From: Nemertoderma westbladi
Lineage: Eukaryota > Animalia > Xenacoelomorpha
Direction: 5' to 3'
Assembly: GCA_032718475.1 (NCBI GenBank)
Contig: JAUCBJ010002011.1
Location: 1 to 36,153 of the forward strand
DNA: 36,153 nt
In this document: one piece after another, positions 532-26,013 of the stretch
How the letters are laid out: every line of letters begins with the position of its first letter
How positions within the stretch are numbered: the stretch's first letter is position 1
Made by a program: the position numbers and the translations under genes
The notes under the pieces: generated by a model
What the model saw: the letters and a program-made list of their open reading frames with translations, nothing else
What the model was told of the DNA's origin: nothing
Database searches by the model: none

Positions 532-1862
532 ATGACGGAGTTGATAGCAGATGGTCTTAGTATCGGGGAGCGATATACTCTACCTTTGCAGGCGTTTGTC
601 GATGGCTTGATGTGCGGCGACGCTGATCCAACTACTACGGAGGACGATGGTCGTTATATCGAACCGCCAATGTCCCAGGAGCAACTTGTGCGTGAATTGG
701 ATTATAGAAAGTTCACTGCTCACTACACGCATCGTAATGGTACGTATATGGACTTCTTGACCACTGGTCATCTTATCGATTTACATAATACGGACTATGT
801 CGACTATATATCCTGCCCAGCGGAGTCGGAACCATAAACTGAAATTCGAATGCAAAAATTCTATTCGAAATCGACTCGAAAGAAAAGACACTAAAGAAAC
901 AAATAAACGCGGTAACTCCAACGTATATTTAGAATTCTTGATAGAAGCATTGTAACAACAAATAAATATCACCCGCGTTTCCCCTACCAGACGTGCGTCT
1001 TTGGTATTATTACGGTAAATGCCCTAGATCCAGCCAATAAACGGAAAGACATAAACATCCACGGAAACGTTGTGTTAAACACAGTTGTGCTCGTTATATT
1101 TACTTGAGTTTCGAGCGAAACTTGTTTGACGTACCACCTATGCTCACTCGGCTCGAACGATCCTGGAGTAAACCTACGATCAGAGTCCCGGAATACTCGA
1201 TCAAACCTCCTCATTCCTTAGTCGGACCTCAGACCTGCGATCCTGGTGGTGTCGCGGATCCTCGTGGACTGTATTCACTGTTCAAAGATCTAGTGCTACC
1301 CTAACAATTAATCGGTAACACTCCGACAGTGATTTCTAGCTAGCCGCCCATCTTACCTAGCCGGATTGTGATGCGGACACCTAATATCACTATCCTACCG
1401 TATGGTCGTCCCCGTTTAACGCGATACAACCCTTCATCAAGGTGAAGGAGAGTTTTGTACGAAACGAGTTAAACGTGATTCTATAAAGATCAAAAAGGAA
1501 ACCTGCGTTTGTTCAGATAAACGTAAGTTATAACAGTAAGTCCAATCGATAAACGAATTGGCCTTATCTCGGTTCGATTGGGAAATCTCGAATCTCTAAA
1601 GATATCAAGCTTAGAAAACCCTATTCTCTGCGAGAGTTTTGGACGAACATATCCCATGACAAGCGGAGGAAAATCAGCTCGAGGAGAAGCATATCGAAAT
1701 GGACGAGACACCGACAGTAAACCCAAACCTTCTAATGCAATCATATTGCACCCTTCACCCAGGAGTTATGGCCCTCCTAGTAAAGTGGTTCCCCCCAAAG
1801 AGAAAAGGACTCTTGCTAGCTTTAAAAAACTGCGTAAACGCCGTCCGCGCGAGAAAGACTAA
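532..1862 (+). pseudogene. Deleted and frameshifted homolog of the accessory ORF
   Basis: MTELIADGLSIGERYTLPLQAFVD matches the N-terminus at 20077. Several indels. A junction near 1707 joins the equivalents of about 21448 and 24176 (about 2.7 kb deleted). Ends KKLRKRRPREKD-stop. Confidence 0.9.
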
Positions 1863-1940
1863 CTGTTTAGAGTATCTTTAGGTTTTAGAAACTGTGATTT
1901 TTATATTTTATAGACTGAAAATCCCATTTTCTGGGAGCGG

Positions 1941-3171
1941 TGTAAAAGCCTTTGCTGAATTGCCCCGTTATTTTTATTATCTTTTACATTAAAATACTCT
2001 GTAGTTGATTTAATAAGTGTAAGAGACCGTATTATTGCTGTATCGGTGTTTTTAGAGGATCTAAGACCTATTTCCTCCGTATGTGTACTGTGAAAGGCAT
2101 ATTTTATGATTCTATGGCAATTCGTGACGCAAAGGGGTGATAGCTACTCTTGAACAGTAGTTACTATGACTACGGTTAACAGCTGACATTCATACGTGTT
2201 GATTTCCTTTGTTCTACGGCGTCTCTCAGTTCAGTCAGCCAATGAGAGCGTTTTTGTGGCTCCTTGTACAGAAAATTTCCGAGAAATGACGCAATGCCTA
2301 TGTGCAGTGTTTACATTCAGTCCTGAGCCTAAGAAAGAACGGCTTGGAAGTATTTTGTGCCTTACTGTTTTTGGTCTTACACTAGTAGGTTTAATTATAA
2401 AGGGCATATATCCTTTAACATACCTAAAGACTACTGCTAACTGATCATACATCCTGACTGCTGAAACATTGCAAACTCGTAACAATCAGTGTTCAGTTGT
2501 TGTTTTATACTGCTATTTACTGTCAGTTCTTCATAATATGGTTGATGAATTATTATATTTGGAATAACGATAAATAACCCCTCAACCCAATATTCTTGAT
2601 ATACCGAAGGTAAGAGAGAAAGGTTACCAATAACGATTGTGACTTATGTTAAAGTGGTTTGAAGTGAATCTAATGTTATTTGATAGACCCTACATGAGTC
2701 AGCCTGTGTTCCTTTTATATGTGACTAAAATCAGTGAAGATTGGCAGATTAGTATGCAGTATTGTGCAGCATTGTGTATGAGTGAGTCTGTTAAAGAAGC
2801 AATTCCTAAAGAATGCGCCATATGTGAATTATAATTAAGCCATATCGTTGTGAGTAGTTTAAGTCATAACTCTGTTTATATAGATAAAGCGCCACGTCCT
2901 AAAGGAACTGTTAATATTCCCGAAGGTGAATAATATTGTCAGAGATTATATAATACTGTCAGTCGAATAATACATTAGGCTTACATAGCAATAAAAATTA
3001 AACCGTCGAACCCAATCTCCCGGGAATATCCAGCGGGTGAATGGTCGCGCACGGATTGGTTTCGACTAGTGTAGTGAATCAAATACTTATCATAGACTAA
3101 AAACAGATTTAATATCTAGAAGACATCTTAATTTGGTGGGTTAAACTGCCAAAGGTCTGAAAGCGCGAACA
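1941..3171 (+). repeat. 3' LTR of the diverged BEL/Pao copy (1231 bp, TGT...ACA)
   Basis: Colinear along its length with the 5' LTR at 6736-7914 but clearly diverged; preceded by the purine tract GGGAGCGG. Confidence 0.92.
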
Positions 3172-3344
3172 CATCCATTCATAAAATAAACACTGACTTT
3201 TTTACTTAGATCTTTATAATGGTACAGCACCGGTATTGGTTTCTTATATTAAATAATAACAGCAGACTAGTTGTTGTTTATTAAGTTGCAAAGACTTTGT
3301 TAAACTAATGTGTTAGTTGGATAGTACGCAAACACGAATCTGGG

Positions 3345-4311
3345 CCGAACTGAACCAGATAGACCATTATTCTGTTTCATAGGAAACAAAGGAGCTCTAT
3401 ACAAGACTATAATACTTTTACACTTCGACACTTCTCCAGTGATCACCGCCTTATTGTGGCCAAGGTAAGAATTAGTCTGCGTGCTAGCAGAACAACGAAA
3501 TCTGCCTTGCCGCGGCATGACTGGTCCTCTCTGTTGCAACAGCCAAGTGTGAGATCCAGCTTCACACTACAGCTGAGCAACAGGTATGAGGTTCTTTCCT
3601 CTGAGGCGACAGATCACTGCGAGGGCTATACTGCCTTCACCGAAGCAGTTAAGTTAGCAGCTGCTGAAACAGTTCCTGTATACCCTCGAAACAGGAAACG
3701 GGCCCCCTGGACTGACAACAAAATTCAGAAGTGCCGAAATGACCTCTACAAGGCGCAGAAAGAGTCCCGACTCAAACAGACTACAGCGGCCAAGAATGCA
3801 GTTAAGGCTGCATCTAGGTCCCTGAACAGGCAGTACTCTGTTAATCTGCAGGAGTTAATAAACCAACAGGTTGATGCCATCAATGATGCTGACGACAGCA
3901 GGCAATCATCCCAGGCATATGGAAATCGATCAACTTGCTTACTGGGCGGAAAAGCCAACCAACCACCAAGGTTAAGGCTGAATCACCAGCCGGTCGCCTC
4001 AATAGTTGGAAGGCCCACTTTGAAAAGCTCCTCAATAATGACAGGATATTGCCTGATAACTTTATATAAGTAAAAGTGTCTGAGTCTGTACTCCCAGATA
4101 TTCCCATTGGTGATATCTCCTTTGCTGAAGTGAAGGCTGCTGCAAAGAGAAGACAGGCATCTGGCTGTTATCTTTTGACTTCTCCAAGGCCTTTGATTCA
4201 CTCTCTCGCCTATGTATGTTCAGCATACTTTCATTATATGGGATTCCTGATGAAATTATTGCAGCAATCAGATCAGTATACGGTGGTTCGACAACAGTTG
4301 TGTCTATCGAG
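3345..4311 (+). mobile_element. Non-LTR retrotransposon (RTE-like LINE) fragment: end of APE endonuclease, linker and part of RT; internally deleted and frameshifted
   Basis: Translates across a frameshift to QIDH-ILFHRKQRSSIQD...FSSDHRLIVAKVRISL (APE C-terminal SDH motif, about 3357-3480). From 4174 it reads FDFSKAFDSLSR...LSLYGIPDEIIAAIRSVY (RT DFxKAFDS...YGIP block). Confidence 0.85.
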
Positions 4312-5742
4312 AACCAAGGAATATGAGGTGATGCAAGGGCTGAGGGAACATGGGGTGACAGAAGTGGGGGTAAAACCAACCAATGGGGGGGGGGGCGCAG
4401 CTGGCAAGTATAACGTGTATCCTTTGGTCAGTCGCCATGTAGGTAGGACTGTGTAATAAGTTTCCCCATAGTTTCCATATATCTGTTAGACAATATTAAT
4501 TGTGTTCAGTTGGCTATTAATTACTGTGGATGTCGGACTGTATACCACCGTCGCCGTAGTTTCTATTGATTGTGCTGTAATTTGTCTACTGGTACTTATA
4601 TATTTATCAGCTATTATTAACAACGATAAACCAATAACTCTTGTATTTTACCAGCCTACGGCCTTCAGCCTTCATAGTCATTATAAACACGGCAATGCGT
4701 AGGAAACACAACAAGAGATTTACCCGGTCGGGATCCCACGCCAACTCGGATCCCATCACATATTATTATATTATTTATTTATTTACAGAATAACCGCGAA
4801 TCAAAAAAGAAATCCTAATAAAGTAATCCAACCCTCTACAGAAAGAAGTTCAGATGTTGGAACGTCAAACTGTCCTAATTATTCCATTGAAGATCAGATC
4901 AAATGATTGAATAACATCAGTTCAATTCCGTATCTTACAGAATATTACATTTAGTTACAAAAAATAATTTATAGTATTTTGTATTAATTTTAATTTATGG
5001 AATTTTCTAACTCTATTTATATAATAAATAATAACAAAGATTTATTAGTATTTTCCATAGGGAGAGCTCGCAATGTTTGCTAAAATTAGATATAAAAGAA
5101 TTAATTTATATCAGATGTAAATACAATTATGATATAAATTTCTTTCAATATTACCTCGTTCTTGGTCGATTTATTCCCATATTATCTGTATTGTGTATTC
5201 GAGTAATACCTGTGTATCTGCTACTTGCCCCTTTGGTAGACACAAACCTGGACCATCCACTAATAAAACGTTTTAATTATAACTCAGAGGTTCCCATTGG
5301 TTATATTATTAACCAATCGGTTCTTTAACCAATAAAACATTGGTTTACAATGAGTGTAACGGAGTTGGTTCCCATTCAGAACTACTATAATGTTATATGT
5401 TTATCTAATCTATTCTAATTATCTCGGTCCCACTGTGGCTGGTTGTGGTTTCCCTAAAGTTACCTGACAACCCTATGTCATTGTACGTCCGTCCGTGTTA
5501 CTAAACTATCAACTCTGTTTGGACAACCGCACTCCATTCTGCATCCAAAATCTCCAGTTCAGCTATTTATATCCTTATAAAGGTTATATTTAGCATTAAT
5601 TCATTACAGCGATCAGTGGATTGGTTACAGACTTGTTCAGTAAACCCAGGGGGGTCTGTATTGGATACACAGGGTTCTTTCTCTATATACTTACATTCCT
5701 ATATGAAACACTGACATGAAACCAAATCAGATTTTCAGCTGT

Positions 5743-6381
5743 TGTAATTATTGAAGGATCATTATTGTGAGCTAACCCTATTCCTTTATATTAATTATTT
5801 GTATTTATTGAAGGATCATTATTGTGAGCTAACCTTATTCCTTTATATTAATTATTTGTAATTATTGAATCATCATTATTGTGAGCTAACCCTATTCCTT
5901 TATATTAATTATTTGTATTTATTGAAGGATCACTATTGTGAGCTAACCCTATTCCTTTATATTAATTATTTGTATTTATTGAAGGATCATTATTGTGAGC
6001 TAACCCTATTCCTTTATATTAATTATTTGTATTTATTGAAGGATCATTATTGTGAGCTAACCCTATTCCTTTATATTAATTATTTGTATTTATTGAAGGA
6101 TCATTATTGTGAGCTAACCCTATTCTTTTATATTAATTATTTGTATTTATTGAAGGATCATTATTGTGAACTAACCCTATTCCTTTATTAATTATTTGTA
6201 TTTATTGAAGGATCATTATTGTGAGCTAACCCTATTCCTTTATATTAATTATTTGTATTTATTGAAGGATCATTATTGTGAGCTAACCCTATTCTTTTAT
6301 ATTAATTATTTGTATTTATTGAAGGATCATTATTGTGAGCTAACCCTATTCCTTTATATTAATTAATTATTTGTAATTATT
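5743..6381. repeat. 57-bp AT-rich minisatellite, 11 near-identical copies
   Basis: Unit ATTGAAGGATCATTATTGTGAGCTAACCCTATTCCTTTATATTAATTATTTGTATTT. The GCTAACC core recurs at 5771, 5828, 5885 ... 6339; one unit is 55 bp. Confidence 0.97.
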
Positions 6382-6485
6382 CGGTTTAATTGATGCAATT
6401 TAATTGGATTGTGTCCCAGTTATTTATATTTAGTCATATTAAAGAAATTATGTGAATATTAATAACATATTAATATTAGAAAGCT

Positions 6486-6606
6486 AGGGGGAGTGAGGGG
6501 TGGGGGGTTGTGTATGTTAGTCTGTTTCATTGGGGAGGGGGAGGGTGTAGGTTAGACTGTTCCATCGGGGTGGTGGGGAGGAGGGGGGAGGAGGGGGGGG
6601 GGGGGG
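6486..6606 (+). other. G-rich tract with multiple G-runs (G-quadruplex potential); C-rich 3' UTR of the minus-strand CRE-like element
   Basis: Many runs of 4 or more G ending in a long poly-G, directly after the minus-strand stop codon at 6609-6611. Confidence 0.6.
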
Positions 6607-6608
6607 TA

Positions 6609-6734
6609 CTAGGGACCATGGACCACCTTGTAGAGTCCCTCGTTGTTAGTGAGTGAAGGGTCCGCGGTCCCCATAATGGAGGCCGCATTTCCGACCACAA
6701 TGGCAACAGCCAGTCTCTGCAGGAGGAAGCGGTG
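6609..6734 (-). pseudogene. C-terminal 41 codons of a CRE-like (restriction-like endonuclease) non-LTR retrotransposon ORF, truncated by the BEL insertion
   Basis: Minus strand reads HRFLLQRLAVAIVVGNAASIMGTADPSLTNNEGLYKVVHGP-stop, resembling the QRL(S/A)xAxxxGNAASxxGT terminus of CRE-type elements. Too short to be in the ORF track. Confidence 0.75.
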
Positions 6735-6735
6735 A

Positions 6736-7914
6736 TGTAAAAGCTTTTGCGGAATTAGCCGGTTATTTTCCCCGCAAAGTACTCTGTAGGTGTTTTAACG
6801 GACATCAAAAGCCGTTTCCTTACTGTACTGGTGTTTTAGTGGACATAAAAAGCCATTTCTTCTGTATGTGTACTTTAGCGGACATAACTAGCAATTCTAT
6901 GTCGCAATACGCTAAAATCCTCTTGAAACAGTGTAGTTACTATGACGACAGCTAACAGCTGATCTGTACACGTGTAGCTTTTCCTTTGTTCTCTGTCGTT
7001 TCTTTGTTCGGTCAACCAATCAGAGCGATTCTCCTGCTTTTTGTACAGAAACCTCCGGGAAATCGCGCAATGCATTATGGGTTAATGTTTACCTTTTTTC
7101 CTGATGCCAGAAGACCGGCTTTGGAATATCTGTGTTTTCAGGCTTTAGCCCAACATTAGTAGGCTTGATCATCGAAACGTATATCTGTTATCCTACTCAA
7201 ACTAATCAATGCAAATCATATTGTCAACTACAAACACCGCATTTTTACTGCTATTTACTGTCGGTCATTAATTATCGGTTGATGGAATATTATTATATTT
7301 GGATAATATCGATCAATAATCAGAAACCCCAATCTTCTTGATATACTGAAGGTTAGAGAGACCGGTTACATATAACAATTGCGACTTACATTAAAGTGGT
7401 TTTAGAGTGAATCTAATGCTATTTCATAGGCACTACATGAGTCGGTTGCTGTTCTCTTTATATGTGACTAAAATTAGTGAAGGTCGGCAGATCAGTGTGC
7501 AGTATTGTGCGGTAGTGTGCATGATTGTGACTGATAACAAAGCATCTCCTAAAGAATGCGCTTTATACGTGAATCCATAGCCATCCCGTTGTGTCTAGTA
7601 TAAGTCATAACTCTGTTTACATATTTAGAGCGCCACGTCCTAAAGGAACTGTTAGTATTTCCCGAAAGTGAATAATATTTGTCAGAAATTATATATTAAC
7701 AATCAGTCGAATAATACAGTAGGCCTACACCGCAATAAGGTCAAAGCTTCCGAATCCAGTCTCCCGGGTATATCCAGCGGGTGAATGGTCACGCATAGAC
7801 TGGCTTCGGCTAATGTAGTGTATCAAATACTCGTCATAGGCTAAAGTCGATTTATAATCTAGAAGACATCTAAATTTGGCAGGTTAAACTGCTGAAGGTC
7901 TGAAAGCGCGAACA
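6736..7914 (+). repeat. 5' LTR (1179 bp, TGT...ACA)
   Basis: Start fixed by identity to 24410; end fixed by loss of homology with the 1941-3171 LTR after GCGCGAACA. CCAAT box near 7016. Confidence 0.95.
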
Positions 7915-7926
7915 ATAACAGATATA
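7915..7926 (+). promoter_or_regulatory. Putative self-priming primer-binding site (not tRNA-complementary)
   Basis: ATAACAGATATA starts at the first base after the LTR and is the exact reverse complement of TATATCTGTTAT at 7180-7191. No TGG-starting tRNA PBS follows the LTR. Confidence 0.68.
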
Positions 7927-7953
7927 TACGTACAATCAAAAAATATAGTTGTC

Positions 7954-8080
7954 TATTGTTCTGGTAAGAACAGTAACAGATATTGATTTCAGATTGCAGT
8001 GTAGGCAATAAATACAGTTTAATATTGTTCTGGTAAGAACAATAACAGATATTGCTTCTTTATTGCACATAGGCAATAAA
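7954..8080 (+). repeat. Two 69-bp leader repeats, each with a hairpin and a copy of the LTR-end/PBS junction
   Basis: TATTGTTCT-GGTA-AGAACA(A/G)TA-ACAGATATTG at 7954 and 8023. GAACAATAACAGATAT also occurs at 7910-7925. Confidence 0.85.
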
Positions 8081-8321
8081 AGGGCAAGAGTACCGGTCGA
8101 CCGGTAACTAGTAGGCCTAACTACCTAACCACCCGAACCGGTACTTACTGCAGTACAGGTACTAGTATTATTTCGATTGTGATATTGTATACCGGTAGGC
8201 TGTTTAAGAGATTAGGGACTGTACACCCCTTGTTTCTTTTGGAGCTTACTTATTTCTGTCAGTTTTATTTACTTGTAGGTTAATATTGAGCAGAAGACGT
8301 GTAAGCCTGCCCAGATTATAC

Positions 8322-8902
8322 AGATAATTTGTAGGCTGGACTGTTGTCTGACTGTTGTTGAGTCTGAGGAGATTGTAGTGTGTGTAGAGCGTATGTCCGA
8401 AAAAGTACTAGCTAGGAACGTAGGGGCTTCCAGTGCTGTGAAGTAAATCCCCTCGAAAGAATAAGTCGTACTACTCGGTTAGAACGCATACTAACTAACC
8501 ATTTCGGAGTCTGCATATACTGTAGTTTGTTTAGGCTTGATAGTAGTCTGCCAGCGTTTGGGCTGTATTTTGTATGTGTAGTCTGTACGGGTAGCGTAAT
8601 ATTTCTTATTTAGATAATTTGTAGGCTGGATTGTTGCCTAGCTGTTGTTAGGTCTGAAGAGATTGCGGTGTGTGTAGAGTGTATGTCCGATAAAGTACTA
8701 GTTAGGAACATAGGGGCTTCCAGTGCTGTGAGGTAAATCCCCTTGAAAGAATAAGTCGTACTACTCGGTTAGAACGCATACTAACTAACCATTTCGGAGT
8801 CTGCATATACCGTAGTTTGTTTAGGCTTGATAGTATTCTGTCAGCGTTTTGGGCTGCATTTTGTTTGAGTAGTCTGTACGCGTAGCATAATATTTATTAT
8901 TC
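8322..8902 (+). repeat. 290-bp tandem duplication in the 5' leader
   Basis: AGATAATTTGTAGGCTGGA starts at 8322 and 8612; the copies are colinear with scattered substitutions. Confidence 0.95.
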
Positions 8903-9847
8903 AGAGTTTATGCGATTATTCGCAACATTCATATCCCCAAGTTTATTCCTACAGTAATTGTGCTTGTTATATATACCGTTATAGTTAAATTAACCCCGGT
9001 ACTACATCAGGGCTGCTTGGCATAGGTAAAGACTGGTGATTTTATGCCCCGGTCACTCCAGCAGATACCGTGGTTCTTTTAGCCGTACAAGTATTTCTAA
9101 CTGCTGATTATTTGTTGTATAAGTACTTGTACCTAATTTAGGGTTTAGTGTACAGTACTTTCCGAAGGTAATTAGTGTGTAGGCAGTATATTTGTGTTGT
9201 AAAGTGGTTAATAGGCAAGTTGGTTCTGGTAGACCGTGGTAATTAACTTCTAGGTAGGAACACTCCGTGATACATAACGTAGTACTTATAGCGATACGGC
9301 TATAAGTCGTCAGACGGTGGTATTTTTCCTATCTGGACAACGCAGTATATTTACTACTACTTATTATTTTCAAATACCGTAGTACCCTGTCCGTTGTAAT
9401 AACCAGATATTCTAACCCTTTGTTAGGCTGGTTTGTAGACTTCTTGTAAAATTACCCTAAAAATTCGTACGTGTAATTTTTGTGTTTATTTAGAGATTGT
9501 AATCTCACCCCGAATTGTACGTAATTTGTAGTAATAAGTAACTTAGGTAAATTAGAATTATTAGTTTTAGTGTCCAACAAGTAGCACTTCACTGAGAGCG
9601 TACAGCTTCTGTGCAGTGACTCCTTCCCAGAAATAATAACATTTATTTCAAATATTGACAAAACCCATTATACGGGTATATATATATTATAAATCAACTC
9701 AAACGATTTATAAAATAGTAGGCCTGTCTTACAACAATTAGGTCTAAATATCAGTTGGACTACTGCTTAAATAACGGTAATAAAGTAAGTAAAGTAACTA
9801 AGTAACCCCTAAAATTCAGAAATTCAATTATTCTAAAATAATTGACA

Positions 9848-10095
9848 TACCGGTATTTACGATAGGCTTATTATATTTATTTCTATAAATTTAGGCTGAA
9901 ATTATACCGGTATTCTGTAATTAATTCTAGTCCATAATTATACTTATATATACTATAAGTGTAAGCTGTATACCGGTATTCACGATATGCCTATTATATA
10001 TTTATATATATTTGTACTGAAATTATATACCGGTATTCTGTGACAAATCTAGTCTGTAATAATACTTATATATATACTATAAGCATACCGGTATT
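9848..10095 (+). repeat. About 122-bp AT-rich tandem duplication with ATACCGGTAT palindromes just before gag
   Basis: Units begin ATACCGGTATT(T/C)ACGATA near 9848 and 9970; five ATACCGGTAT copies in the interval. Confidence 0.85.
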
Positions 10096-10231
10096 CTAAT
10101 ATATTGTATATATATCACGTTACATAGAGTGACGATATCGGTAATTAATTACTAGGCTAACAGTTAATACTGAATTACTAGACTTGCTTTAACTGTAATA
10201 CAGCAGTAGGCATCCAACTGTATAAACAAAC

Positions 10232-13200
10232 ATGTCTGACACAAAGCAAAACCTGTCAGACAGTCTCTTAGATACAACCATCTGTGACCCAGATAGGAGT
10301 GTGGAACGTGTGAGACCGAAGTTCAACTCACCTCCTACTGTAAGAAAAATCATCCCTCCAGTAGTAGTATCAGACACTAGGCTAGTCCAACACCGTAGGT
10401 CTATCATAGGCACTCGAGCTCAAGTCAAGCGAGACCAAGAAGCAGCGGAACAGCAGCAACACTCGAGCCGAGAACTTATTTCTCAGCGGCCCGACAGCTC
10501 CAGTAGTGCGGATACTATAGAGCTGACACCCGAGCGCGGAGTTAAGATGGCAGATGCGGTTTATTCGGATCCCCTTCTCATCCTTCCTGCAGCCGTACTC
10601 ACTAGAGTATTGATTGCTGTGGAGGAACACCAGATTGATTGGGCGAGAAGTAAGCGATCGACCAAGGATAGTTATGCGGGATACACAAGGGAAGAACTGA
10701 AGTCTATTGTCGAGTCGCAATGGAACTTCCCCGGACCCAGACTCCCGTTTGACTTATCGGAAGCTGCCTGGGAAGACATACACAGGATGGGAGTGACAAA
10801 GGAAACCAGCGATCCAGCTGTATGGAAGAGGTCAGCAGCCGGATACGTACAGGGATTCTTCAGCTCTATGGAGCGATTAGAGGAACAATTGTTTCGACAA
10901 CCACAAGGACCTCAAGAGCAGGGAGAGCTGCTTTATCAAGTTAGAGAAAGAATTCTAAGATTCAGACTAATCTTATCTGCCTTTGAGGAGGCTTCGAAAA
11001 GAAGACAAGACACGTCGTTGCAAGTTGCCGTAAAGACTTGGTTACAGCGGGTGAGTCTCCAAGTTCAAAGAACTGCCCCGTGGAAATCTCAGTTGGATGA
11101 GTGCTCAACCCACGGAGAATCAACAGACGCTACCTTTTCCCAAGTGGAAAGCGAAGCGACAGCAGAGAAACCGCATAAGAGGGATGCTATTGACATCTAT
11201 CTGTCAGACTATCAACGATTTGTAGGTGACGAAGAGTTGAGGAGACGGCTGGATGGACTTAGCCCCAATAGTGAAGGAGCCAAGCTTGTGTTGGACGCAA
11301 TCGATGTGGATATGTTAGCTGCGAACCAAGCTAAATTCAATGAAAGCATCCGCATTACTAAGGTTCAAGAGGAACAAGTAAGGAAAAAACGTATAGAAGA
11401 CAGAAAGACAGCAGCAGCGGCAGCGGCAGAAGCAGAAGCGGAAAGAAAGGCAGCAGAAGTGGAAAAGAAAGCGGCAATGGCAGCAGCAGAAGCGGAAAGA
11501 AAGGCAGCAGAAGTGGAAAAGAAAGCGGCAATGGCAGCGGCAGAAGCGGAAAGAAAAGCGGCCGAAGCGGAAAGAAAGGCGGCCGAAGTGGAAAGAAAGG
11601 CGGCAATGGCATCGGCAGAAGCAGAAAGAAAAGCGGCAGTGGCAGAAGCAGAACGGAGGGCATCTGAAGAGACAACCCAGCTAGAGTTGGAAAATCTTCA
11701 AGAGAGGCAGGACAACTTCAATAAACAGTTAACAGCTAGTCAAATGCAGATGATGAGTCGATCTACTCCCAAACGACAGGGATTTACATCATCTGATGAA
11801 GGCGATGCCACAGATCTTGAAGGCGGAGGAAATAGATCTCGTCTAAGTAGGCGTAGAAGAATGTCCCACCGTCAGAAATTGCCTGATTTGCCCCCAGCTG
11901 TTAGAAAGCAACTAACTAACCCAGACTTAGGTAGTACAGAACCCACAGACCAAATAATTAAAATAGAAAGACTCCCTACTATAGTAGATGAGCCTGAAAT
12001 AATTAGGCCTGTTCTCGATGCCACCCCTTCGGTGATAGAGACACCTGTACTCCCAGAACTTACCTCTAAATTCCCTCTGCACAGCACTAAGCTACCTGTG
12101 CCCCACAGAACCATCCCTGAAAATGTTCATGTCCTGGACTCCGAGCGAAATATTAATGATTTGTCGCCCGTTGTCCCTCGTCCGCCCGCTACAACGTTGG
12201 CGGCTCCCGCTTCGGCGGTCGAGTGGGTGGATGAGAGACGACGGGGGATGGATCTCCTGCTCGGGCAGATGCAGGAGACTGTTCAGCAATTCAAGGGCAC
12301 AGTAAGGGAAAGTAGGTTAGAGTTGCAAGAAGTGCAGCAAAGTATCGCGTTAGAACGCGATAAATTAGTAAATACCCAAAGAGGTATACCACCACCCCCG
12401 GTAACAATGTGTCAACCTGTTAGGTCTGAAGTATCTCATGCGCAAGGTGTAGAGCCTACACGCATCTATACTGCTAGTGAAGTGGAAACTCCTATAGTAA
12501 ACCCTATTAAGGGTAATTATAAACCTGTTGACAATGATATTCCCTATAGACCTGATCATAATCCGAGAAATTTATATACCGATAACTCGATATTAAATAA
12601 CACGATGGCCCAAGAAAGTTTTACGCGTCAAATGGCTAGAACCGAAGCCCGTCAAGCGGTAAAGGTGGGAGAGATAGTCAAGTTCAATGGAGATGAGATG
12701 AAATGGTTACCTTTTAATGAATATTACAAAGATAACATACAGAACTCTGTGCTATCTAACGGAGAGAAACTTAGATTCCTCATCGAGTGCTTGGAAGGAT
12801 CTCCCAAGTTAATGGCGTTAAAGTTTATTGGACATCCAGATGGATTAAGACAAGTTTGGGATACCCTAAACATCAGGTATGGTAATAGGAATAACATAGC
12901 TAAGTATTTGTATGCAAAATTGGTAGCACCCCGAAAATTCATTAGCAGCAGGATTATAGAGTTTTCCGATGAGATTCAGGAGATCTGTAGACAATTAGAT
13001 TGGCTAGGTAAGTCTCATGAATATCAGAGTTCTATGGTTATTGGAGCCGTGGCCTCTACTTTACCAAGGGTGGAGTAGGTACACGCTGGGATAAGAAAGT
13101 GTTATATATGATGGAACAACAACGACGAGACCCTACCATGGCTGATCTCATGTCATTCTTGGATGGAGAAGTGAAATTACAACTCCTAAAGCAGTCGAGA

Positions 13201-16200
13201 GAGAAGACACCGGAAAACAAGGTAAGTGAGAAACCCGTTTCTAGGAGAAAGGAAACACCAGTGTGTTATACCGACGACGGCGAAAGCCAGGCTTCTCAAG
13301 GAGAGGACAGCAGGAAAGACACTGAAAGATCTTATTATGTCAACAAAACGCCTAAAGATGTAAGTAAATTCAAGTCTCGAACCAATGACAGGAGAGAACA
13401 GGTAAGAAAAACTCCTCCTACGTCTCCTAAGATAATTCAGTTAAGAAAGCCCGAAGAAGTGTGCACAACGTTACTCAAAATAAGGTAAGTAACATCAAAC
13501 CGAAATGCGCACTGTGTGACGGGCCCCACCGTTTGAATGTGTGCGATGAATTCCTAAAGAAATCATTAAAGGATAGACGGGAAGTCATGTGGGATAAGCG
13601 GTTGTGTTATAATTGCCTCAGACAAGGACACCAATGGCGAACCTGTTACTCCGACGCAAGGTGTGCAAAGTGCGGTGCGAAACATCATATCTTGTTGCAC
13701 ACTGAATTCGAGCGAAACAGCCCGAGTCAGGTAAGTGAGTCCGAACTACATGTCCAATTCAGTGATGTGAACGACACTGACCAAAGTTCTGAGATGGAAG
13801 GATTCTATACGGACGAATTCTCCGACGAAGACGAATCCTGTTACATGATAAATACCTCAGTGTATCGAGCACTTACGTATGAAAAGGACACCGACAGCGA
13901 GCTCACCCTAACTACTTCTGACCGACAACCATCTTGGAAAGCACCAACTTCCAATGTAGGAATCCGAGAATTTCCTGTAGTACAGTTAAGGGTCCACGGA
14001 CCTACAAGGAGTTATATAGTGAACGCCCTCCTTGACTCCGGTAGCACAGGAACATTCATCGACAAAGAACTAGCCGAAGACATCTTTGCTGGACAACCCA
14101 AGTTCCGAACTAAGCTAAACATGTCAGGAATTATGCAGGTTTGGAAATCTACAGTAATAGCGGATTATTATGTAGGTGCGTTGTCCACCCCCCAGGATGA
14201 ACTAGGAGAACACAGCATAAGGTCAGTAAAAATGGTAGCGATAAAGAACTTCGCTACCAGCCAAGTAGAACCTTATAACTGGGATGAGGACAATTTCACC
14301 CAGCAGCTTGATATACCTAGATTCAACACCGATTACCCTGGAGTGCAAATACTCATCGGTCAAAATGAGCATGAGGCGCTCGAGACATTGGAGAAACGGC
14401 CTGCTCAACCGCAACCACTACAAGCCTATGCGGGAAGAACTAGAGTGGGTTGGTACTTTACTGGCCCTTCCCGTAGAACTCTCATGGAAAGATTACCAAA
14501 AGATCAGGTATATCAAGTAAGAGAATGGGAAGTTGAGAGCAGTGAGTTAGACGATCCAACTGAGGGAACACCATACTCCTCAGATAACGACGATATCCAC
14601 CAACTCTTCGACGAGGAGAATACCATTGATCACCTTACGGAAAACGAGACTTGGCAAAACCAAGTGAACCTATGTCAGCTCATTCGTCCATCAGAACGAG
14701 TCGACTATAACGACGAACTGAATGACGTCATTGAACGTTATAATGCAAAAACTCGGGATGAACATGCCGTACGATTCTTTACTCAAGTGGCTGTAGAGCC
14801 CAATTCCTACAATAAGGCCCTATCGGTAGAAGAAGAAAGAGCCAAGCAGATCCAAGAGACAACTACACGTTTTCTTAAAGATCAAGGTAGATATGAAATC
14901 GGTCTACCTTTCCGAAAGCGAGAACCAAAGTTCATAAACAACAGACCCTTGGCCGAGAAAAGAATTGCTCAACTACATGGACGTCTTACGGCAAATTCTT
15001 CAGCTAAAGAAATGTATCAGACGCAGTTGAAGAAATTTATTAACAAAGGATATGCGGAGCGAGTACCGGAAGGAACACCTATAACTGAGAGAACGTATTA
15101 TTTAACACATCATTACGTTCCCAAACCCGGTAAACCTCATGAGGTACGAGTAGTGTTTGACGGCTCCGCCCTTTACATGGGCCAATCCCTTAATTCCGAG
15201 TTGTTACCAGGACCCAACTTACTCCAATCCTTGTTGGGAATACTCTTAAGATTACGACAATATTAAATCGCTTTCGCCTCCGATATAGAAGGCATGTTCT
15301 TACAAGTCAAGGCGCTGGATAGGGATCGAGATAGCCTATGATTTCTGTGGTGGCCTGAAGGAGACCTCAACCAGAAACCGGTGGAATATTGGATGACCAT
15401 CCAGGCTTTTGGGATAATCTCGAACCCTTCAAACGCCTGTTCAGTGGTGCGCACCACTGCTGATGACAACCGGGAAGCCTTCTCTAAAGAGGTGATCGAC
15501 AACATCAAACGGGATATATACATGGACGACAATTTAAAGTCCCTTCCATCAGTCGAAGAAGCCATTAATGTCGCCAAAGGAATGGTAGAGTGCTTAAAAA
15601 GAGGTGGATTTCGCCGTGAGTTTCTGGAATCGATCCCGGTAGAAGATCGAGGAGCGAAAGACCTAGACCTAATCAAAGATGATCTTCCAGAAACCAAGAC
15701 ACTTGGTTTGAAATGGGACACAGAGAGAGATATCCTGTTTTTCCAGCTAAAACAGCGAGATAATCCAGTTCGAACTAAACGGATTTGTTTAAGTATCCTG
15801 AGCACTTATTTCGATCCATTGGGATTTATTAGCCCAGTTATATTGATTGCTCGGAGTTTAGTACAACAAATGTGGCTTGAAAACCACTCATGGGACGATC
15901 CACTCAAGGGAGAATTATTAAAGAAGTGGATGAAATGGGAAGATTCTCTACCAGCCATCGAGAACTTTATAATTTCCCGTTCATATTTTGGTCATGTTCT
16001 CCCTACGTATTCCTATCAACTCCATGTGTTTGGAGACGCCAGCGATATGGGAATAGGTATAGTAGCCTACCTGAGAGTTGAAACTCCGGATGGAATCAAG
16101 GTCGCCTTGGTTACCTCTAAGGCGTTGATAAACAACAAGTTGAAGGTTCCTCGAGCGGAGTTAAAGGCGGCTCCATACGCTACAGCCATCGGCCGGAATG

Positions 16201-18380
16201 TAACAGAACAGATCGACTATCCATTGGAGAAAACTGTATATTGGACCGATGCCTTACTCGTGTTGGAGTATATAACCAATGAAGTCTGTCAGTTCAGCAT
16301 CTTCGTTACCAACAGAGTAGCCATTATACTTAGTCGCACGAAGATGGATCAATGGAGACATTGCCCCGGAACGATTAATCCAGCAAACATCGCCTCCAGG
16401 GGAGCAACTCCACAAGAACTGATAGATACTCCAGACTGGTTAGGTGGACCCGACTTCCTCTACAAAGGAGAAGAAGAATGGCCTCCTCATCTTACTACGG
16501 CAGAGATTAGACAGGCCAAAGGAGCGGAGAAAGTCAAACCTAAAACTCAGGCGAGTAAATCGAATTTATTTAAACCCGCGGTAGATCTGTCTGTACTACA
16601 CACTTCCGGAGACGACGCTTTGGTTCCGAAACCCACAGCCACAAACAAGTCTGTTGTGGAAATCAGAGAGAAGGATTGGAAATCTGGAATACCAGACGTC
16701 TCGCAAGGACTCTCACCTCTCCTGCAGAGAGCGATATATCATTACAGTTCCTTGAATCGGCTCTGTAAAGCCGTTACATATTTAAGGCGATGTTTTCATC
16801 ATCACTACTCCAGGGCGAAGACCAATAGTGATACTGCTCCACTGACATCTGTGCAGGTCCATGTTGTTAAAGATCTTCCCAAATATAAGATATCCGACAG
16901 GTTTCTGAAGGAGAAGATCAGTTATCAGGAGCATGAAGAAACCAACAAGCAGATGCTGAGACTCCTGCAATGCTATGAGGATTCCGATAACTATTTCCTG
17001 TTGTTGAGAAATCCACAGATGCGCTTAAGGGATCGTTTCTCTAGCACAATGATAGATGGGTTGATATGTGTTGGAGGAAGATTAATGAATGCTCCATTAT
17101 CCTTTGACACTAAGTTTCCCATACTCATTAGAAATCTTGAGATACAAGTCAAGATGATTGTGGATGTTCACAGCAAACTTTATCATGCTGGTAGAGAACG
17201 AGTTCTTAGCGAAATTCGAACTCGCTATTATTTTTATAAACCCCGTAGAGCTCTGAACCAAGTTCTTAGGAACTCCATACCCTGTAGGAAAGTATTCAGT
17301 AGGCCTTTAACACAGCGAGAGGCAGAATTACCTAGGGAACGAGTAAGCTTCTATGAACTACCCTTTACTAATACCGGTGTAGATTTATTTGGCCCTATTG
17401 AAGTGTATCGTGCTAGGACTATAGTCAAGAGATGGTGTATCATCTTTGTTTGTATGACTTGTAGAGCTATCCATCTCGATATGGTGAACGATTTATCTAC
17501 CAACAGCTTCCTATTAAGCTTACGACGACAGATCGCTCGCTTTGGAACTAGTAACACGATGAGGTCTGATAAGGGAACGAACTTCATTGGTGCCAACAAT
17601 GAAATCAAAGCTTATGTCAAAGATTGGAACCAAAGACAGGTGGACGATCAGCTAAGGGTAACAGCGTCTAGCTGGACCTTCAACGCCGCCGACGCCCCTT
17701 GGTGGGGAGGAAGTTGGGAGAGATTAATCAGGAGCGTGAAGACCGCATTTCACTTTATAGTGCCGTGCCGCGCGTATCTCACTGACAAACTTTTGCGGAT
17801 GTTAATGGAGGAAATCACCGCCTATCTCAACGAGAGACCGCTTATGCCAGTCTCATCGAGTCCCGATTCCCTGGAAGCGCTAACACCCGCGCACTTCCTA
17901 CTGAAGAAACCTGTAGCCATGCTCCCACAATCGGAAATCACAGACGGAGACGAATACTGCCGGCAAACTTGGCAACTTATGCAGTTGTTATCCCGTCGTT
18001 TTGCTGACCATTTCGAAAAACATTATCTGCCCATGCTACAACTTCAAACTAAGTGGTTTGCGCAGCAAGAAAACGTCGGCGCTGGAGACATGGTCCTTAT
18101 TGTGGATTCAGATCTTCCACGTAAGCGGTGGCAGACAGGTCGTATCATCGAGACTCACATCTCGGATGACGGTTTGGTGCGATCGGTAGAACTCGTCGTC
18201 ATGCGACGTAACTTCAAGAAACCGGGAATTGTCTTCGAGACACAGCAGCTCAATCGCCCAGTTGGTCGTTTATGTTTACTGGAAAGAGACAGAGAACTCT
18301 CCGGAAACTATGGAAGACAAGATACTCTTCCCACGACCACCTCCCTAATCCAACAAACATCTAGGGACTCCCCAGCTTAG
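10232..18380 (+). pseudogene. gag-pol: BEL/Pao gag-pol polyprotein (about 2,700 codons) disrupted by two frameshifts and two nonsense codons
   Basis: DUF1759-like gag core KFNGD..KW..F..EKLRFL..RYG (about 12675-12885). Knuckles CALC..H..C, CYNC..GH..C, CAKC..HH.LLH (about 13506-13700). Protease LLDSGS (DSG 14034-14042). RT YMDD 15519-15530. RNase H LHVFGDAS, PRAEL, YWTDA, NPANIASRG. Integrase GVDLFGP, SDKGTNF, GGSWERLI. Frameshifts near 13065 and 13431-13488; stops at 15264 and 15339. Confidence 0.96.
11410..11660 (+). repeat. Coding tandem repeat in gag (18-aa/54-bp units built from AAEAERK-like heptads); predicted long helix or coiled coil
   Basis: AEAERKAAEVEKKAAMAA repeated; 54-nt period (11461 vs 11515). 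Confidence 0.9.
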
Positions 18381-20033: not shown

Positions 20034-20076
20034 AAATATAAACTCATTATAATATTGATAAACTCATATAGCAGAT

Positions 20077-23000
20077 ATGACTGAGTTGATAGAAGATGAT
20101 CTTGGTATCAGGGAGCGATATACTCTACCTTTACAAGCGTTTGTCGATAGCTTGATACGCGGCGACGCTGGTCCAACTACTACGGAGGACGATGGTCGTT
20201 ATATCGAACCGCCAATGTCCCAGGAGCAACTTACGCGTGAATTGGATTATAGAAAGTTCACCGCTCGCTACACGCATCGTAATGGTACGTATATGGACTT
20301 CTTAACTACTGGCCATCCTATCGATTTACATGACACGGACGATGTAGACACCGAAAGGGAAATGGTTTTATTTAAATATCATACCCAGCGGAGTCGGCAC
20401 GATCAACCGAGAATAGAACATGAGAATTCTATTCGAAACAGACTCGAAAGGGAAGACGTTGAAGAGCTGGATAAACGCAGCGACTTCAACGATTATCTGG
20501 AATTCCTGAGAGAGACATATCTCAATATTGCCAGCCAACAAAATCTAGAAACTCGATATCCTCAAGGTATACATCATGACCCTATGATAGAACTCAAACG
20601 ACTCTATTTCACTATGATGTATCTTACCGCCGATCGACCCCTACTTGTCGTCCCAGATAGCTTCGAACAGATGGAGGAATATTGTAAAAGTGGAGAACGA
20701 TCACCCACGTTTCCCCTGCAGGACGTGCGTCTTTGGTATTACTGCGACGAATGCCCTAGACCCAATCAGCAAACGGAAAGACATAAACATCTGTGGAGAC
20801 TTTGCGCTAAACACAGTTTTACACGATATACTTATGGGAGTTTCGAGCGAAACCTGTTCGACGTATCACCTACGATCGCTCGACTCAAACGATCCTTGAA
20901 TAAACCAATGATCAGAGTTCCGGAATACTCGGTCAGACCTCCTCATTCCTCTGTTAGACCTCAGACTCTAGATCCTAACAGTATCACGGATCCTCCCGAA
21001 CTGTACTCACTGTTCAAAGATCTAGTGTTACCCGAACAGTTGATCGGTGGCACTCCGGTAGTGGGCTCACTAGATATTCGCCAACCCTACCTAGCCGGAT
21101 TAGGATGCGGTCATCTAATATCGCCGTTTAACCCATACAACCGTCCCGGCTTAACCCCGATACAACCCATTACTGAAGTCGAAGAGAGCGTTGTACGAAA
21201 CGCGTTAGACGCTATTCGGCAGAAAATCAGAAAAGGAACTTACGATTGTTTAGAGAAACATAAATTGCAGCAACAAGTCCAAGCGGTAAAAGAATTAGCT
21301 TTACCTCAGTTCAATAGAGAAATCCAGGATCTCGAGGAAGACATCGAACGTGGACGCACCTACTCTTTACAAGAGTTCCTAGACGAGCGTTTACAACAGC
21401 AAGCGGAGGAAAATCAGCACGAGGAGAGACATATAGAAATGGATGAGAGAGAAGAAGCAGCTTTAGCCCAGCCAGAAGCTCAAATTCTTCTAACGGATCT
21501 CTATTCTAAAACCATCATCCATCCTTCGATGGTTCCCCATTTTGGAGACAAACTCTTCGCCACGGCACAGCCTCAACCGGTTGATATCAACCTAAGATCT
21601 CGAGATCTTATCGCTGACACTCCCATGTTGCAACGTCCGCCAATCGAGGCCGCTTGTGTCGATGGTATACTCGTTGAACCTCCGGACAATAGAGCGGATC
21701 TTGTCCGTCGTATGGTACACGATGTTAACATACGCACTAGACCTTTACCGAACTCGTTTTATGGGATCAAAGATCACCCTTATTACGTCAATCTAACGCA
21801 ATATTACATGGTAAAACCGGAAGATCCTACACATAGTCTGAGGTTTCTACCACTAATAAATCCTCTCGATCTTGTCGAACTCGAACAACTGCAGAAACAT
21901 CTGGATCAGTTAGTTAAAGTAAACTCATTTCGAAAACCCTATAATGTTTCCAGAATAGAGAAAGAGACAATACCTCCGTATAATCTTGATGGATTCATCA
22001 AAACTCGATTAGTACACTGGAATCTTGACGTGTTATTCGAGGAGGAAAGAATACAACGATATGGAGATGTAGAAACATATACTACACAATATTTAAAGTA
22101 TAGAGATTTACCTAATGCTAGCGAATGCGCTACCTTGTGGCATCCAGTGGGAATGACTCTAGAAAACGCCACTAAAGAGTGGAATGAGACTCTTAACGTT
22201 ATCGAGATGTATGGAGTTGTCACTTACGATAACGAAGGTAGCGTTCCGGTTGGAGAACTGGGAACTACGCGAATGATACATATATGAGGACTAGCTGGTT
22301 CTAGCCACGTATTTACTCGAGCGTGTTCCGATGTGATTGATTATTCTTTTGAGACCCTTACCGAGATACAAAAGAAACTCCGACATGGACAATTCGAACT
22401 CGTGCAGCGTTACGTCACCGACACCGAGCGCAAACCGGCCATGGGTATCGATGGATCGATGTTACCCCAGCCCGTGCTCGAGATGTTGTTTAATTAAAGA
22501 ATCCTTAAAATCGGCTCAGCTGTTTATGGAGATCTACAAAACGACTTTCGGAACATGGAGAACATTCCATACCCTTTCGTCGATACTCAGCTGATTGCTC
22601 CCTGGGCAGAAGGCCGAGGTTTCTTCCGCACTATGTATGCCAATACACCCAGCGGCATTACTAAAGTACAACGAACCTCCATCGGACATCTTGCCTTTCA
22701 AGAATACGGATGGAATTTCAAGGTTGGAAATCCTATCAATTACCAACAAGTATATGGAGATCATTATTCTCGTTTATACTTTGACGGACCATTGACCGCA
22801 CCTGGCGCCGTGTATAGCTTTATGAGTGTTCCACTTCGTCCCTCCTTAGCTATATACATGATCTTTGAAAAAGCCGCACTTGCCGGTTGGCTAGCGGATG
22901 TGTGCAGTCGTACCATACGCGCCCATCCCTTAATACTTGTAACCAAACTCGCCAAGCTAGATGAACACAATAAATTCATCCGCTTCGAATGTTTCAGGCG

Positions 23001-24332
23001 CTTTCTGACTCCGTTCCGTAACGTTGATAGTCAGTTCAAGGACCGCGCTCTGACCTAACTCAGCCTAAGAGACTCAGCTGCGGAGAAGTTAAACAGCGCG
23101 GGATTCGCCCTTTTCAAGGACGTTTGTATACAGAACTTACATTCATCTGTTATACAAAGACCTCGAATACCCACGGGTTATTCTGTCGTGGAAGTTCAGA
23201 CAGTGGGTTCGCTTGCGGAGACAGCCGCACCTATCTCAGCTATGCAATTGGAGGACGAACCAATATGCTTAGAATCTGAGGAGATTCAGCCTACCGCGCC
23301 CCGGAGCAGCGATAACGACTACGTCTTGGAATGGTATCAAGGTCCACAATGTCTCACCGCATACGATTATCTGCACGCCAACTATATTTCTCGAAAACGT
23401 TGCCGATTATGCGCATCGAGAGATCATTTCACCCCTATGGACTCAGACGTACCCTGCTCCTATTTCCACGAACAACCGATGATGGAGATCTATTGTGCGT
23501 ATTGCAGACTTAATAACTCACACATTTTTGCAGTCTGCCCACAATTTATGACTCAATGCCATCACTGTCAACTTAAAGGACATGCCAGTTTTAATTGCCC
23601 TTTTAACCGCGATTTAGAAAGCGTAGGTGAGATGATTACCCTGCGCTACATCCGAGCTTGGGAAGCGAACATGGATTTACATTGTGAGTCCCACCATCGC
23701 TATTACCCTGGACGCGCTTACGAAGGAGTTTACGCGTTCCATCCTTATCGATTCGCGTCTGTTGAACAAAAAACACGCACCCCTAGTTACGAACTAATGA
23801 AGCGTGTTGGTGAGTGCATTTCCACCAAATTTGTTCGCAAATATCTCAGGAACGTCAATCCTAACGATATTAGCTCATACCATTTGATTAATTTCATCCG
23901 TCAAGACCCTGAGTATGGCGATTTATTTATCAACTCGCACCCTGAGTTACAGGAAGTATCTCGACGGCCCTACGAATATCGAGCCCGAGAAAGCGAGCTG
24001 GAAAGAACCATTAAACCGAGGAAGTTTCTCACCACTCACGGTCCACCTACCGCTATTGTCCAGACGACTCGTCAGGGACCAGTAGGAGCTGCTGTCCTAA
24101 GACGCGCCCTAAAGGCCGTTAGACCTCGCTCTACTGAAGTTGATATCGATCAACCAGTTACCTCGACCGGCGGATACACCGATCGTAATCCTAAACCTTC
24201 TGATGCAATTGTATTGCACCCTTCACCCAGGAGTTACAGCCCTCCTAGTAAAGTGGCTCGCCCCAAAGAGAAAAGGACTCTTGAAAAGGACTCAAAAAAC
24301 TGCGTAAACGCCGTCCGCGTAAGAAAGACTAA
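20077..24332 (+). pseudogene. Accessory ORF, about 1,417 aa when repaired: unknown N-terminal region, DEDDy-type 3'-5' exonuclease, three CCHC zinc knuckles, basic C-terminal tail
   Basis: Track ORFs 20077, 22555 and 23188 share one frame, with only three stops between them (TGA 22285, TAA 22495, TAA 23056). ExoI VVTYDNEG (22216-22239), LPQPVLEMLFN.RILKIGSAVYGD (ExoII D 22531), PFVDTQ, SIGHLAFQEYGWNFK, PLRPSLAIYMIFE (ExoIII-like 22855-22869). Knuckles at 23401-23600. A +2 indel near 24284-24293 masks the KKLRKRRPRKKD-stop seen in copy 1. Confidence 0.85.
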
Positions 24333-24401
24333 CTGTTTAGAGTATTTTTATATTTTAGAAACTGTGATTTTTATATTTTATAGAATTAAATCCCATTTTC
24401 T

Positions 24402-24409
24402 GAGAGCGG
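24402..24409 (+). promoter_or_regulatory. Polypurine tract before the 3' LTR
   Basis: GAGAGCGG abuts TGT at 24410; GGGAGCGG sits at the same place in copy 1. Confidence 0.75.
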
Positions 24410-25277
24410 TGTAAAAGCTTTTGCGGAATTAGCCGGTTATTTTCCCTGCAAAGTTCTCTGTAGGTGTTTTAACGGACATCAAAAGCCGTTTCCTTACTGT
24501 ACTGGTGTTTTAGTGGACATAAAAAGCCATTTCTTCTGTATGTGTAGTTTAGCAGACATAACTAGCAATTCTATGTCGCAATACGCTAAAATCCTCTTGA
24601 AACAGTGTAGTTACTATGACGACAGCTAACAGCTGATCTGTACACGTGTAGCTTTTCCTTTGTTCTCTGTCGTTTCTTTGTTCGGTCAACCAATCAGAGC
24701 GATTCTCCTGCTTTTTGTACAGAAACCTCCGGGAAATCGCGCAATGCATTATGGGTTAATGTTTACCTTTTTTCCTGATGCCAGAAGACCGGCTTTGGAA
24801 TATCTGTGTTTTCAGGCTTTAGCCCAACATTAGTAGGCTTGATCATCAAAACGTATATCTGTTATCCTACTCAAACTAATCAATGCAAATCATATTGTCA
24901 ACTACAAACACCGCATTTTTACTGCTATTTACTGTCGGTCATTAATTATCGGTTGATGGAATATTATTATATTTGGATAATATCGATCAATAATCAGAAA
25001 CCCCAATCTTCTTGATATACTGAAGGTTAGAGAGACCGGTTACATATAACAATTGCGACTTACATTAAAGTGGTTTTAGAGTGAATCTAATGCTATTTCA
25101 TAGGCACTACATGAGTCGGTTGCTGTTCTCTTTATATGTGACTAAAATTAGTGAAGGTCGGCAGATCAGTGTGCAGTATTGTGCGGTAGTGTGCATGATT
25201 GTGACTGATAACAAAGCATCTCCTAAAGAATGCGCTTTATACGTGAATCCATAGCCATCCCGTTGTGTCTAGTATAA
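24410..25277 (+). repeat. 3' LTR, first 868 bp (rest displaced by an insertion)
   Basis: Matches 6736-7603 with about 5 substitutions and no indels by eye; homology stops abruptly after TAGTATAA. Confidence 0.96.
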
Positions 25278-26013
25278 CCCAGTGAAAAGTGCGCAAGCGA
25301 ATCGCAAGTGATATTCATGCGCCATGCGTTATTCTTGCGGAAAAATTATTAGTGATAAAACTCCTGCGATACACTTGCGAATCACATTCGTTTTATCTCA
25401 TGCGAAAAAACGCATTGGAATCACTTATTAAAGAAATTTGTGAAATCAACACTTATGAATTTCTTGAGATTTATCACTCATTTGTCACCTTATGCTGTTA
25501 TGCCTTTTGCGGGCATATTTGAATTTGAATTTTTGGCGCTACAACCCTACAACTGTACTGGCTGACTTACTGCTGTACCGGTACGTACTGAATATCCGAA
25601 TGCAGGAATGTATTCATTCAGTACATTGCAGTTGCAGTACTGTTGTTTTGTAACTACCGGTATCATAGTTGTAGCAAGTAGTGACAGTGAAGTGTGAACT
25701 GCCTATGGACTGACGGAGTCACTCACAACTGCAGCAGTAGGCAGGTAGGCCTGCTTCAGTCAGGCAGTTTGCTTTGATGGTCAAGCTAGCACTAGCTGTC
25801 TACTGGTCTATAGCCTATCTGCTATCTGCAGTAGGCTGACTCTGACTGGGACTGGCCGTGTCTTGTGCTGCGTCCTACGTCTAGGTCTACCGGTACCGGC
25901 AGACCGGTACTACCTGACTACTGCCAGACTGCTGTACTCCTGTACTGTTACTGTATGCTGGTAGCAGTCTGCCGGTACCGGTCAGCAGGCAGCAGGTGCA
26001 GGCGCAACTTTTC

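Follow-up and report, generated by a model that had tools for sequence, protein, structure and literature searches.

The question raised by this locus is how an LTR retrotransposon without a tRNA-type primer-binding site (PBS) behind its 5′ LTR might prime minus-strand DNA synthesis. The window (the whole stretch of DNA analysed, 36,153 nt of a Nemertoderma westbladi contig) carries one long element and part of an internally deleted relative, with the following parts.

6736–7914, + strand: 5′ LTR, 1179 nt, TG..CA, from self-comparison of the window
10226–18377, + strand: gag-pol in four stop-free pieces (10226–13075, 13021–13485, 13431–15263 and 15342–18377)
20062–24411, + strand: extra sense ORF region in three pieces between pol and the 3′ LTR, no Pfam hit
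24402–24409, + strand: short purine-rich, PPT-like tract abutting the TG of the 3′ LTR with zero spacer
24410–25277, + strand: 3′ LTR, cut off at 25277, 99.4% identical to 6736–7603 (868 nt)
1941–3171, + strand: diverged 3′ LTR of the internally deleted relative, 73.5% identity

As the 3′ LTR is cut short, the LTR end was set at 7914 by means of the diverged LTR: the two complete LTRs (6736–7914 and 1941–3171) have their last 20 letters in common and then diverge. A leader of 2.3 kb lies between the 5′ LTR and gag, and the gag-pol pieces contain DUF1759 (E 5e-11), zinc knuckles, a protease motif, YMDD, Peptidase_A17 (E 1e-35), integrase and DUF5641 (E 4e-19), the domain order in pol being PR-RT-RH-IN. 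A search for homologues gave 149 proteins, of which the best (35–40% identity) are named in records of sea anemone, brittle star, brachiopod, ribbon worm and fish, and PF05380 was present in nearly all of the 120 listed. Judged by its proteins the element is a member of BEL/Pao; a quick tree without named references does not assign it to any of the named clades (Sinbad, Suzu, Pao, BEL, Tas, Dan, Flow), its row sitting on a long branch (1.44) among open forks. The Pfam search of the element gave no chromodomain hit and it is not a member of the Tf1/sushi group. The ICTV profile of the Belpaoviridae (genus Semotivirus) describes priming by host tRNA from an 18-nt PBS for tRNA-Arg or tRNA-Gly and calls BEL/Pao replication poorly understood (PMC8742986). 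The present element agrees with that profile in its LTRs (within 0.2–1.2 kb), gag-pol domain set and order, short PPT and metazoan-type relatives, but differs from it in length (at least 18.5 kb against 4.2–10 kb), in the extra ORF region and in having no 18-nt tRNA PBS (PMC8742986). Its gag-pol is broken, so this copy may have lost selection.

The extra ORF region (~4.3 kb) has Cys/His knuckle-like motifs near 23500–23600, and DNA homologous to it lies at 1–1708 in the diverged copy, where the equivalent of ~21450–24170 is missing. Both LTR types carry a splice-donor-like AG/GT(T/A)AG (7350–7356 and 2608–2614), located where the best-conserved part of the LTR begins. The leader contains a 290-nt tandem duplication (8316–8852) and a 57-nt tandem array lies upstream of the element (5685–6471). 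The 5′ flank (6722–6735) ends in a purine-rich stretch resembling the element’s own PPT plus TG, which may be chance or the trace of a homology-guided insertion. Unrelated DNA starting CCCAG follows the stop of the 3′ LTR (25278–36153); it includes two inverted arrays of a 12-nt unit (30424–31352) and ORFs at 32100–34154 (weak DUF4218, E 0.003) and 34433–35716, which presumably belong to a CACTA/EnSpm-type DNA transposon with its far end outside the window.

The sequence immediately behind the 5′ LTR was compared with the LTR itself, which gave the following sites.

7915–7926, + strand: putative PBS, abutting the LTR’s CA and complementary to 7180–7191
7180–7191, + strand: putative self-primer segment, with an 11-nt core at 7181–7191
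7968–7983, + strand: second copy of a 16-mer spanning LTR end and PBS (15/16), in leader repeat unit 2
8037–8052, + strand: third copy of the 16-mer (16/16), in leader repeat unit 3

The sequence-only reading had proposed that no TGG-type tRNA site follows the LTR and that 7915–7926 is instead a perfect complement of 7180–7191 starting exactly at the LTR boundary. All of this was confirmed: the leader opens with ATA, the reverse complement matches at 12/12 positions and the match begins on the first base after the CA at 7914. The extension also proposed (ACG at 7177–7179 with CGT at 7929–7931) is present in the window copy but is not constant in the family, base 12 being C, T, G or A elsewhere. 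Under a first-order Markov model the expectation for the 12-mer anywhere in the LTR is 4.2e-4. Among 2285 leader positions (7915–10199) a 12-nt run is reached by 7915 only, the 11-nt runs being at 7916 (the same site) and 8042 (the repeat of the PBS site), and none of 40 control windows reached 12 nt (maximum 9). The homologous site in the diverged LTR (2407–2418) differs from 7180–7191 at three of 12 positions, and its pairing with the PBS of the window element is weak (−3.6 kcal/mol). ARAGORN found no tRNA gene in the window and an Rfam search over 6700–10300 gave one chance hit (E 0.9). From these comparisons and those with other copies described below, 7915–7926 appears to be a real, family-wide, non-tRNA putative primer site in a BEL/Pao element.

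Folding of the 5′ part of the RNA was predicted with ViennaRNA. When the RNA was taken as 7180–7960 the helix 7180–7191:7915–7926 formed with probability 1.0; with its start moved to 7100 the probability of the PBS helix drops to 0.006–0.34. In the longer RNA (7180–8100) a second helix is predicted at probability 0.997, with these arms.

7723–7736, + strand: LTR arm of the predicted second helix, overlapping AATAAG at 7734–7739
7993–8006, + strand: leader arm of the predicted second helix, 13/14 complementary to 7723–7736

The energy of this helix is −19.0 kcal/mol. Of the four leader sites that are 13/14 complementary to the LTR, 7993–8006 alone has its helix preserved at the corresponding position of the diverged LTR; the arm there (2979–2992) still pairs at 13/14 and differs at three positions, two giving G-U pairs and one falling at the existing mismatch. 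The AATAAG is poly(A)-signal-like and its counterpart at 2990 in the diverged LTR is AATAAA; a plausible additional role of the second helix is to mask the poly(A) signal at the 5′ end. Since this helix crosses the one at the PBS, a nested folder shows one and not both. In Tf1 the ‘pretzel’ consists of a central primer:PBS duplex and two further duplexes in which sequence next to the PBS pairs with part of the LTR lying downstream of the primer (bioRxiv 2022.12.06.519325), and the crossing predicted here is what that description would imply. When the last 225 nt of two sequences were folded to a consensus, 53 pairs resulted, two of them changed on both sides; in this fold the partner of the U5 end differs from the one drawn by hand, and the third pretzel helix has competing candidates.

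These folds also bear on the explanation that ranks next after self-priming, namely that the pairing is structural or regulatory (leader folding, packaging or poly(A) masking) and that priming is by a tRNA fragment or host small RNA. The 16-mer recurs at 7968 and 8037 inside a 58/69-nt leader repeat, which the sequence-only reading had overlooked, so that the PBS-like sequence is present three times in the leader and the copies compete in folding; in the nested fold of 7180–8100 it is repeat unit 3 that takes the primer segment (P 0.98). Leader and U5 as a whole contain abundant structure (7177–8100 folds better than 20/20 shuffles, z −3.9). All of this would suit a structural role. However, the match starts on the first post-LTR base, where the 3′ end of a primer must sit, and its footprint is 11 nt here and 11–12 nt in six distant elements (below) regardless of their sequence. 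The tRNA and Rfam searches above likewise speak against it, and we consider this explanation unlikely.

Other copies of the family were sought by comparing the contigs of four sequencing runs (11151, 3447, 149 and 105 contigs) with 6600–8400 at 80% likeness. Of 29 joints, contigs that leave the reference and rejoin it, 15 were listed; nine of these leave at 7901–7927 and rejoin at 7969–8089, eight of the nine leaving at 7924–7927 with a shorter side of 21–30 letters. Because the break lies at 7924–7927 and neither side is shorter than 21 letters, these eight joints hold both LTR end and PBS. Most joints rejoin at 7988–7993, which places the block 7993–8006 about 10 nt behind the PBS and indicates that these copies have fewer leader repeats. 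The first 11 leader bases are common to other copies and base 12 varies as noted above (contigs from two runs); a further class of joint keeps seven leader bases and then differs. Depths in the table of joint variants were 735, 246 and 921. The joint contigs are short (sides below 31 letters) and ascertained on the window reference. The partner PBS predicted for 2407–2418 was absent among the 15 of 29 joints and the 24 of 577 loose ends listed. Two leader variants are without a full partner in either window LTR (best runs 7–8 and 6 nt), as would be expected if they come from subfamilies whose LTR lies outside the window.

The recurrence of the 16-mer meant that a deletion merited testing: the window copy might have lost a TGG tRNA site that lay between the GAACA at the LTR end and one in the leader, in which case its complementarity to the LTR would be incidental. 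Consistent with this, GAACA and PBS-like sequence stand again at 7968 and 8037 with a TGG a few bases upstream of each, repeat number differs among copies, and a TGG junction could sit beyond the 15 of 29 joints listed. Against it, in runs X1 and X3 several contigs with different continuations have these same 11 nt directly behind the LTR end, which disfavours the possibility, raised by the sequence-only reading itself, that other copies have a TGG site here; and a deletion accounts neither for the 12/12 match nor for the conservation edge at 7192 described next. We regard such a deletion as improbable.

Around the primer segment (7145–7220; 32 contigs from three runs) the family copies agree up to 7192 and then differ, so that the edge of conservation lies one base past the paired segment. 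Eleven of the 14 contig pieces listed end at 7192, in all three runs, and loose ends at 7192–7196 have three different continuations. Piece ends were used here and not the 7- to 9-fold fall in depth at 7192/7193, part of which is built in since only 28 reference letters lie beyond it. Under self-priming the edge is where strong-stop DNA would end, and a plain hypervariable spacer would look alike. Variation past 7192 would be expected, as Tf1 reverse transcriptase adds non-templated bases to cDNA ends (PMC11042837). The depth of one X3 contig at the LTR site (914.6) is close to that of the variant leader contig (921.2), a similarity that is no more than suggestive and was not counted. Run X5, guessed to be RNA, gave no cover at 7149–7209. 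Outside these runs, the LTR-end motif had four matches in metagenomes, all due to chance with no similarity beyond the motif, and none in viral contigs, where a protein-based search also gave no locus.

More distant relatives were obtained by an alignment search of prokaryote MAG contigs, which gave 19 loci of contaminating animal-type DNA; 20 more stretches were taken from four of the five genomes searched. GTDB prokaryote MAGs thus contain whole animal-type LTR retrotransposons as contamination (L005–L023, G001–G005; 52 matches in G005). Elements were counted when both LTRs stood around a pol match, which left 11, and the leader of each was scored at its first 10 offsets (20 in L054, which has a cut 3′ LTR) against the contiguous LTR and against GTRAG/YAG junctions, a junction pattern picked once a looser pass had been made. 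Dropped from the count were loci lacking an LTR pair, duplicates (L065, L067 and L072), contig-end overlaps (L010, L012, L015 and L019) and L066 (a 65% repeat that is not an LTR). The L023 LTR pair (1020–5739, 331 nt, 99.7%), which lies beside a BEL match, was dropped as it does not enclose the pol match; we take it to be a Copia-type element that runs on the opposite strand and has a site of the half-tRNA type.

In six of the 11 elements a self-match of 11–12 nt was found, each above 40/40 control windows. That of L005 is contiguous (11 nt at offset 4), and the other five appear across a junction only (L007, 12 nt; L008, L011, L054 and L055, 11 nt each). In L008 and L011 the last three exon bases and the matching leader bases change together in a compensatory manner. 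L055 is ambiguous because it also has a TGG at offset 1. L056, L057, L058 and L061 have a TGG at offset 0–1 and no self-match (4–7 nt). L063 was rejected as a self-match (10/11 across the junction, longest run 8, equalled by five of 40 controls). There is uncertainty over where the LTRs of L007 and L054 end, and the lineages are few, L008 and L011 being close kin, as are L056–L058; a quick tree (48 rows, without L054, L063 and L064, whose matches are short) does not show the self-matching elements as one clade. A poly(A) signal lies 1–24 nt behind the matched segment in L008 (1000–1800), L011 (1000–1892), L007 (4290–4700), L054 and L055.

As in some of the relatives, the primer of the window element might be made by splicing, or come from another LTR position, 7180–7191 being secondary. 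Five of the 11 relatives match across a GT-AG junction only, the donor-like site is kept at 7350 and 2608, and the diverged LTR has no contiguous match. In the window LTR, however, no junction beats the contiguous 12 (the best is 11, with non-consensus donors and no GTRAG donor), and none in the diverged LTR exceeds 10, making this very improbable. Chance complementarity in AT-rich sequence, for which one could cite that 10 of the 12 matched bases are A or T and that 6600–10300 contains 73 inverted pairs of at least 10 nt, is hardly credible given an expectation of 4e-4 at a fixed position, the best score of all 2285 positions and the recurrence in distant elements.

We therefore favour the reading that this family primes minus-strand DNA synthesis with its own RNA, which the comparisons make probable. 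The sequence-only reading had likened the geometry to that of Tf1 and the likeness is partly upheld: the 11-nt footprint, the edge after 7192, the predicted second helix and the distant self-matches fit it, but the reach of 723 nt from primer end to LTR end is long (44–148 nt in the seven relatives measured, a 5- to 16-fold difference) and 2407–2418 pairs poorly. That reading had also placed the transcription start near 7180. This is loosened by the spliced relatives, whose primers probably are not the RNA 5′ end because just 3–6 primer bases come from the first exon and TATA-like boxes lie ~50–240 nt upstream of the donor in L008, L011 and L054. By analogy the primer need not equal the RNA 5′ end here, and a start at or upstream of 7181 would suffice. 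A pyrimidine–purine step is a rule for start sites, and such a step at 7180/7181 (a weak indication) and the 11-nt footprint speak for a start at 7181; against it, TATAAA stands just 11 nt upstream of the homologous site in the diverged LTR. Whether the start is at ~7181, giving an 11-nt, Tf1-like primer, or further upstream appears about evenly balanced, and we put an exact Tf1-style 5′-terminal primer, overall, somewhat below an even chance.

In the mechanism that we propose, the genomic RNA would fold so that 7181–7191 pairs with 7915–7925 and 7723–7736 with the leader just downstream, forming a Tf1-pretzel-like pseudoknot, and this fold may also hide the 5′ poly(A) signal. By analogy with Tf1, the RNase H of the element would cut after 7191, and the new 3′-OH would be extended from the last LTR base to give a strong-stop DNA of ~720 nt (7192–7914), which would jump to the 3′ R region (the 3′ LTR has its copy of the primer segment at 24854–24865); plus-strand copying of the paired bases would then restore the 11-nt PBS. 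Alternatively, with a start further upstream, the primer would be longer and paired at its 3′ end only. Taking window and relatives together, it is possible, at a shade under an even chance, that self-priming is widespread in BEL/Pao elements of aquatic animals in a contiguous build (window element, L005) and a build whose primer becomes complete only when an intron in the LTR is spliced out (L007, L008, L011, L054 and L055), that it arose independently of Tf1/sushi yet arrived by convergence at an 11-nt duplex with a pretzel-like pseudoknot, and that the window element has a 720-nt R-U5 with a masked poly(A) signal and a primer that may be internal.

The closest known systems are Tf1 and Tf2 of Schizosaccharomyces pombe, Tj1 and Tosmo1–3 in the Tf1/sushi group, which resemble the window element in having no tRNA site and a PBS of ~11 nt directly behind the 5′ LTR that is complementary to the LTR (PMC7175516, PMC4600332). 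The Tf1 primer is 11 nt and is cut by RNase H (PMC7175516), and the group also has an extra helix in which sequence beside the PBS pairs with the LTR downstream of the primer (bioRxiv 2022.12.06.519325). These are Ty3/gypsy chromoviruses, whereas the pol of the window element is BEL/Pao and its primer is remote from the LTR end. Two of the three pretzel helices are supported here by prediction, the leader has PBS-like repeats, and identity of RNA start and primer is putative. Self-priming has also been predicted from sequence in plant Tcn1 chromoviruses and in TAR elements (Houba, Osr-1) of Ty1/copia, where PMC6317226 asks for a complementarity to the 5′ LTR of 10 nt or more that begins 0–5 nt behind this LTR; the window element has such a match, in another superfamily and host kingdom, and it is a prediction in both. 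No description of self-priming in BEL/Pao was found in the literature searched (Repbase, GyDB and older subscription papers lay outside the search): it is not described in the accessible portions of PMC5341516, PMC6934838, PMC3601003, PMC13524379, PMC8220671 and PMC3286476, and terms for PBS, tRNA or priming do not occur in the text available of PMC3118150 or PMC554778. What would be new is that a known, Tf1-type mechanism occurs in a superfamily for which the literature searched has no record of it.

BEL/Pao is among the major groups of LTR elements and is taken to be tRNA-primed by assumption. Cer7 of C. elegans, a BEL-type element, is said to encode its own tRNA-like primer; the window element would likewise supply its own primer, but the window has no tRNA gene and there is no TGG site. 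If the self-priming reading is correct, BEL/Pao would be the third superfamily with self-priming, its self-priming members may be freed from host tRNA supply and from silencing by tRNA fragments, and the PBS calls missed by annotation tools would be explained. For a family that is very abundant, it also predicts a cut site, 7191/7192, that is exact and can be tested.
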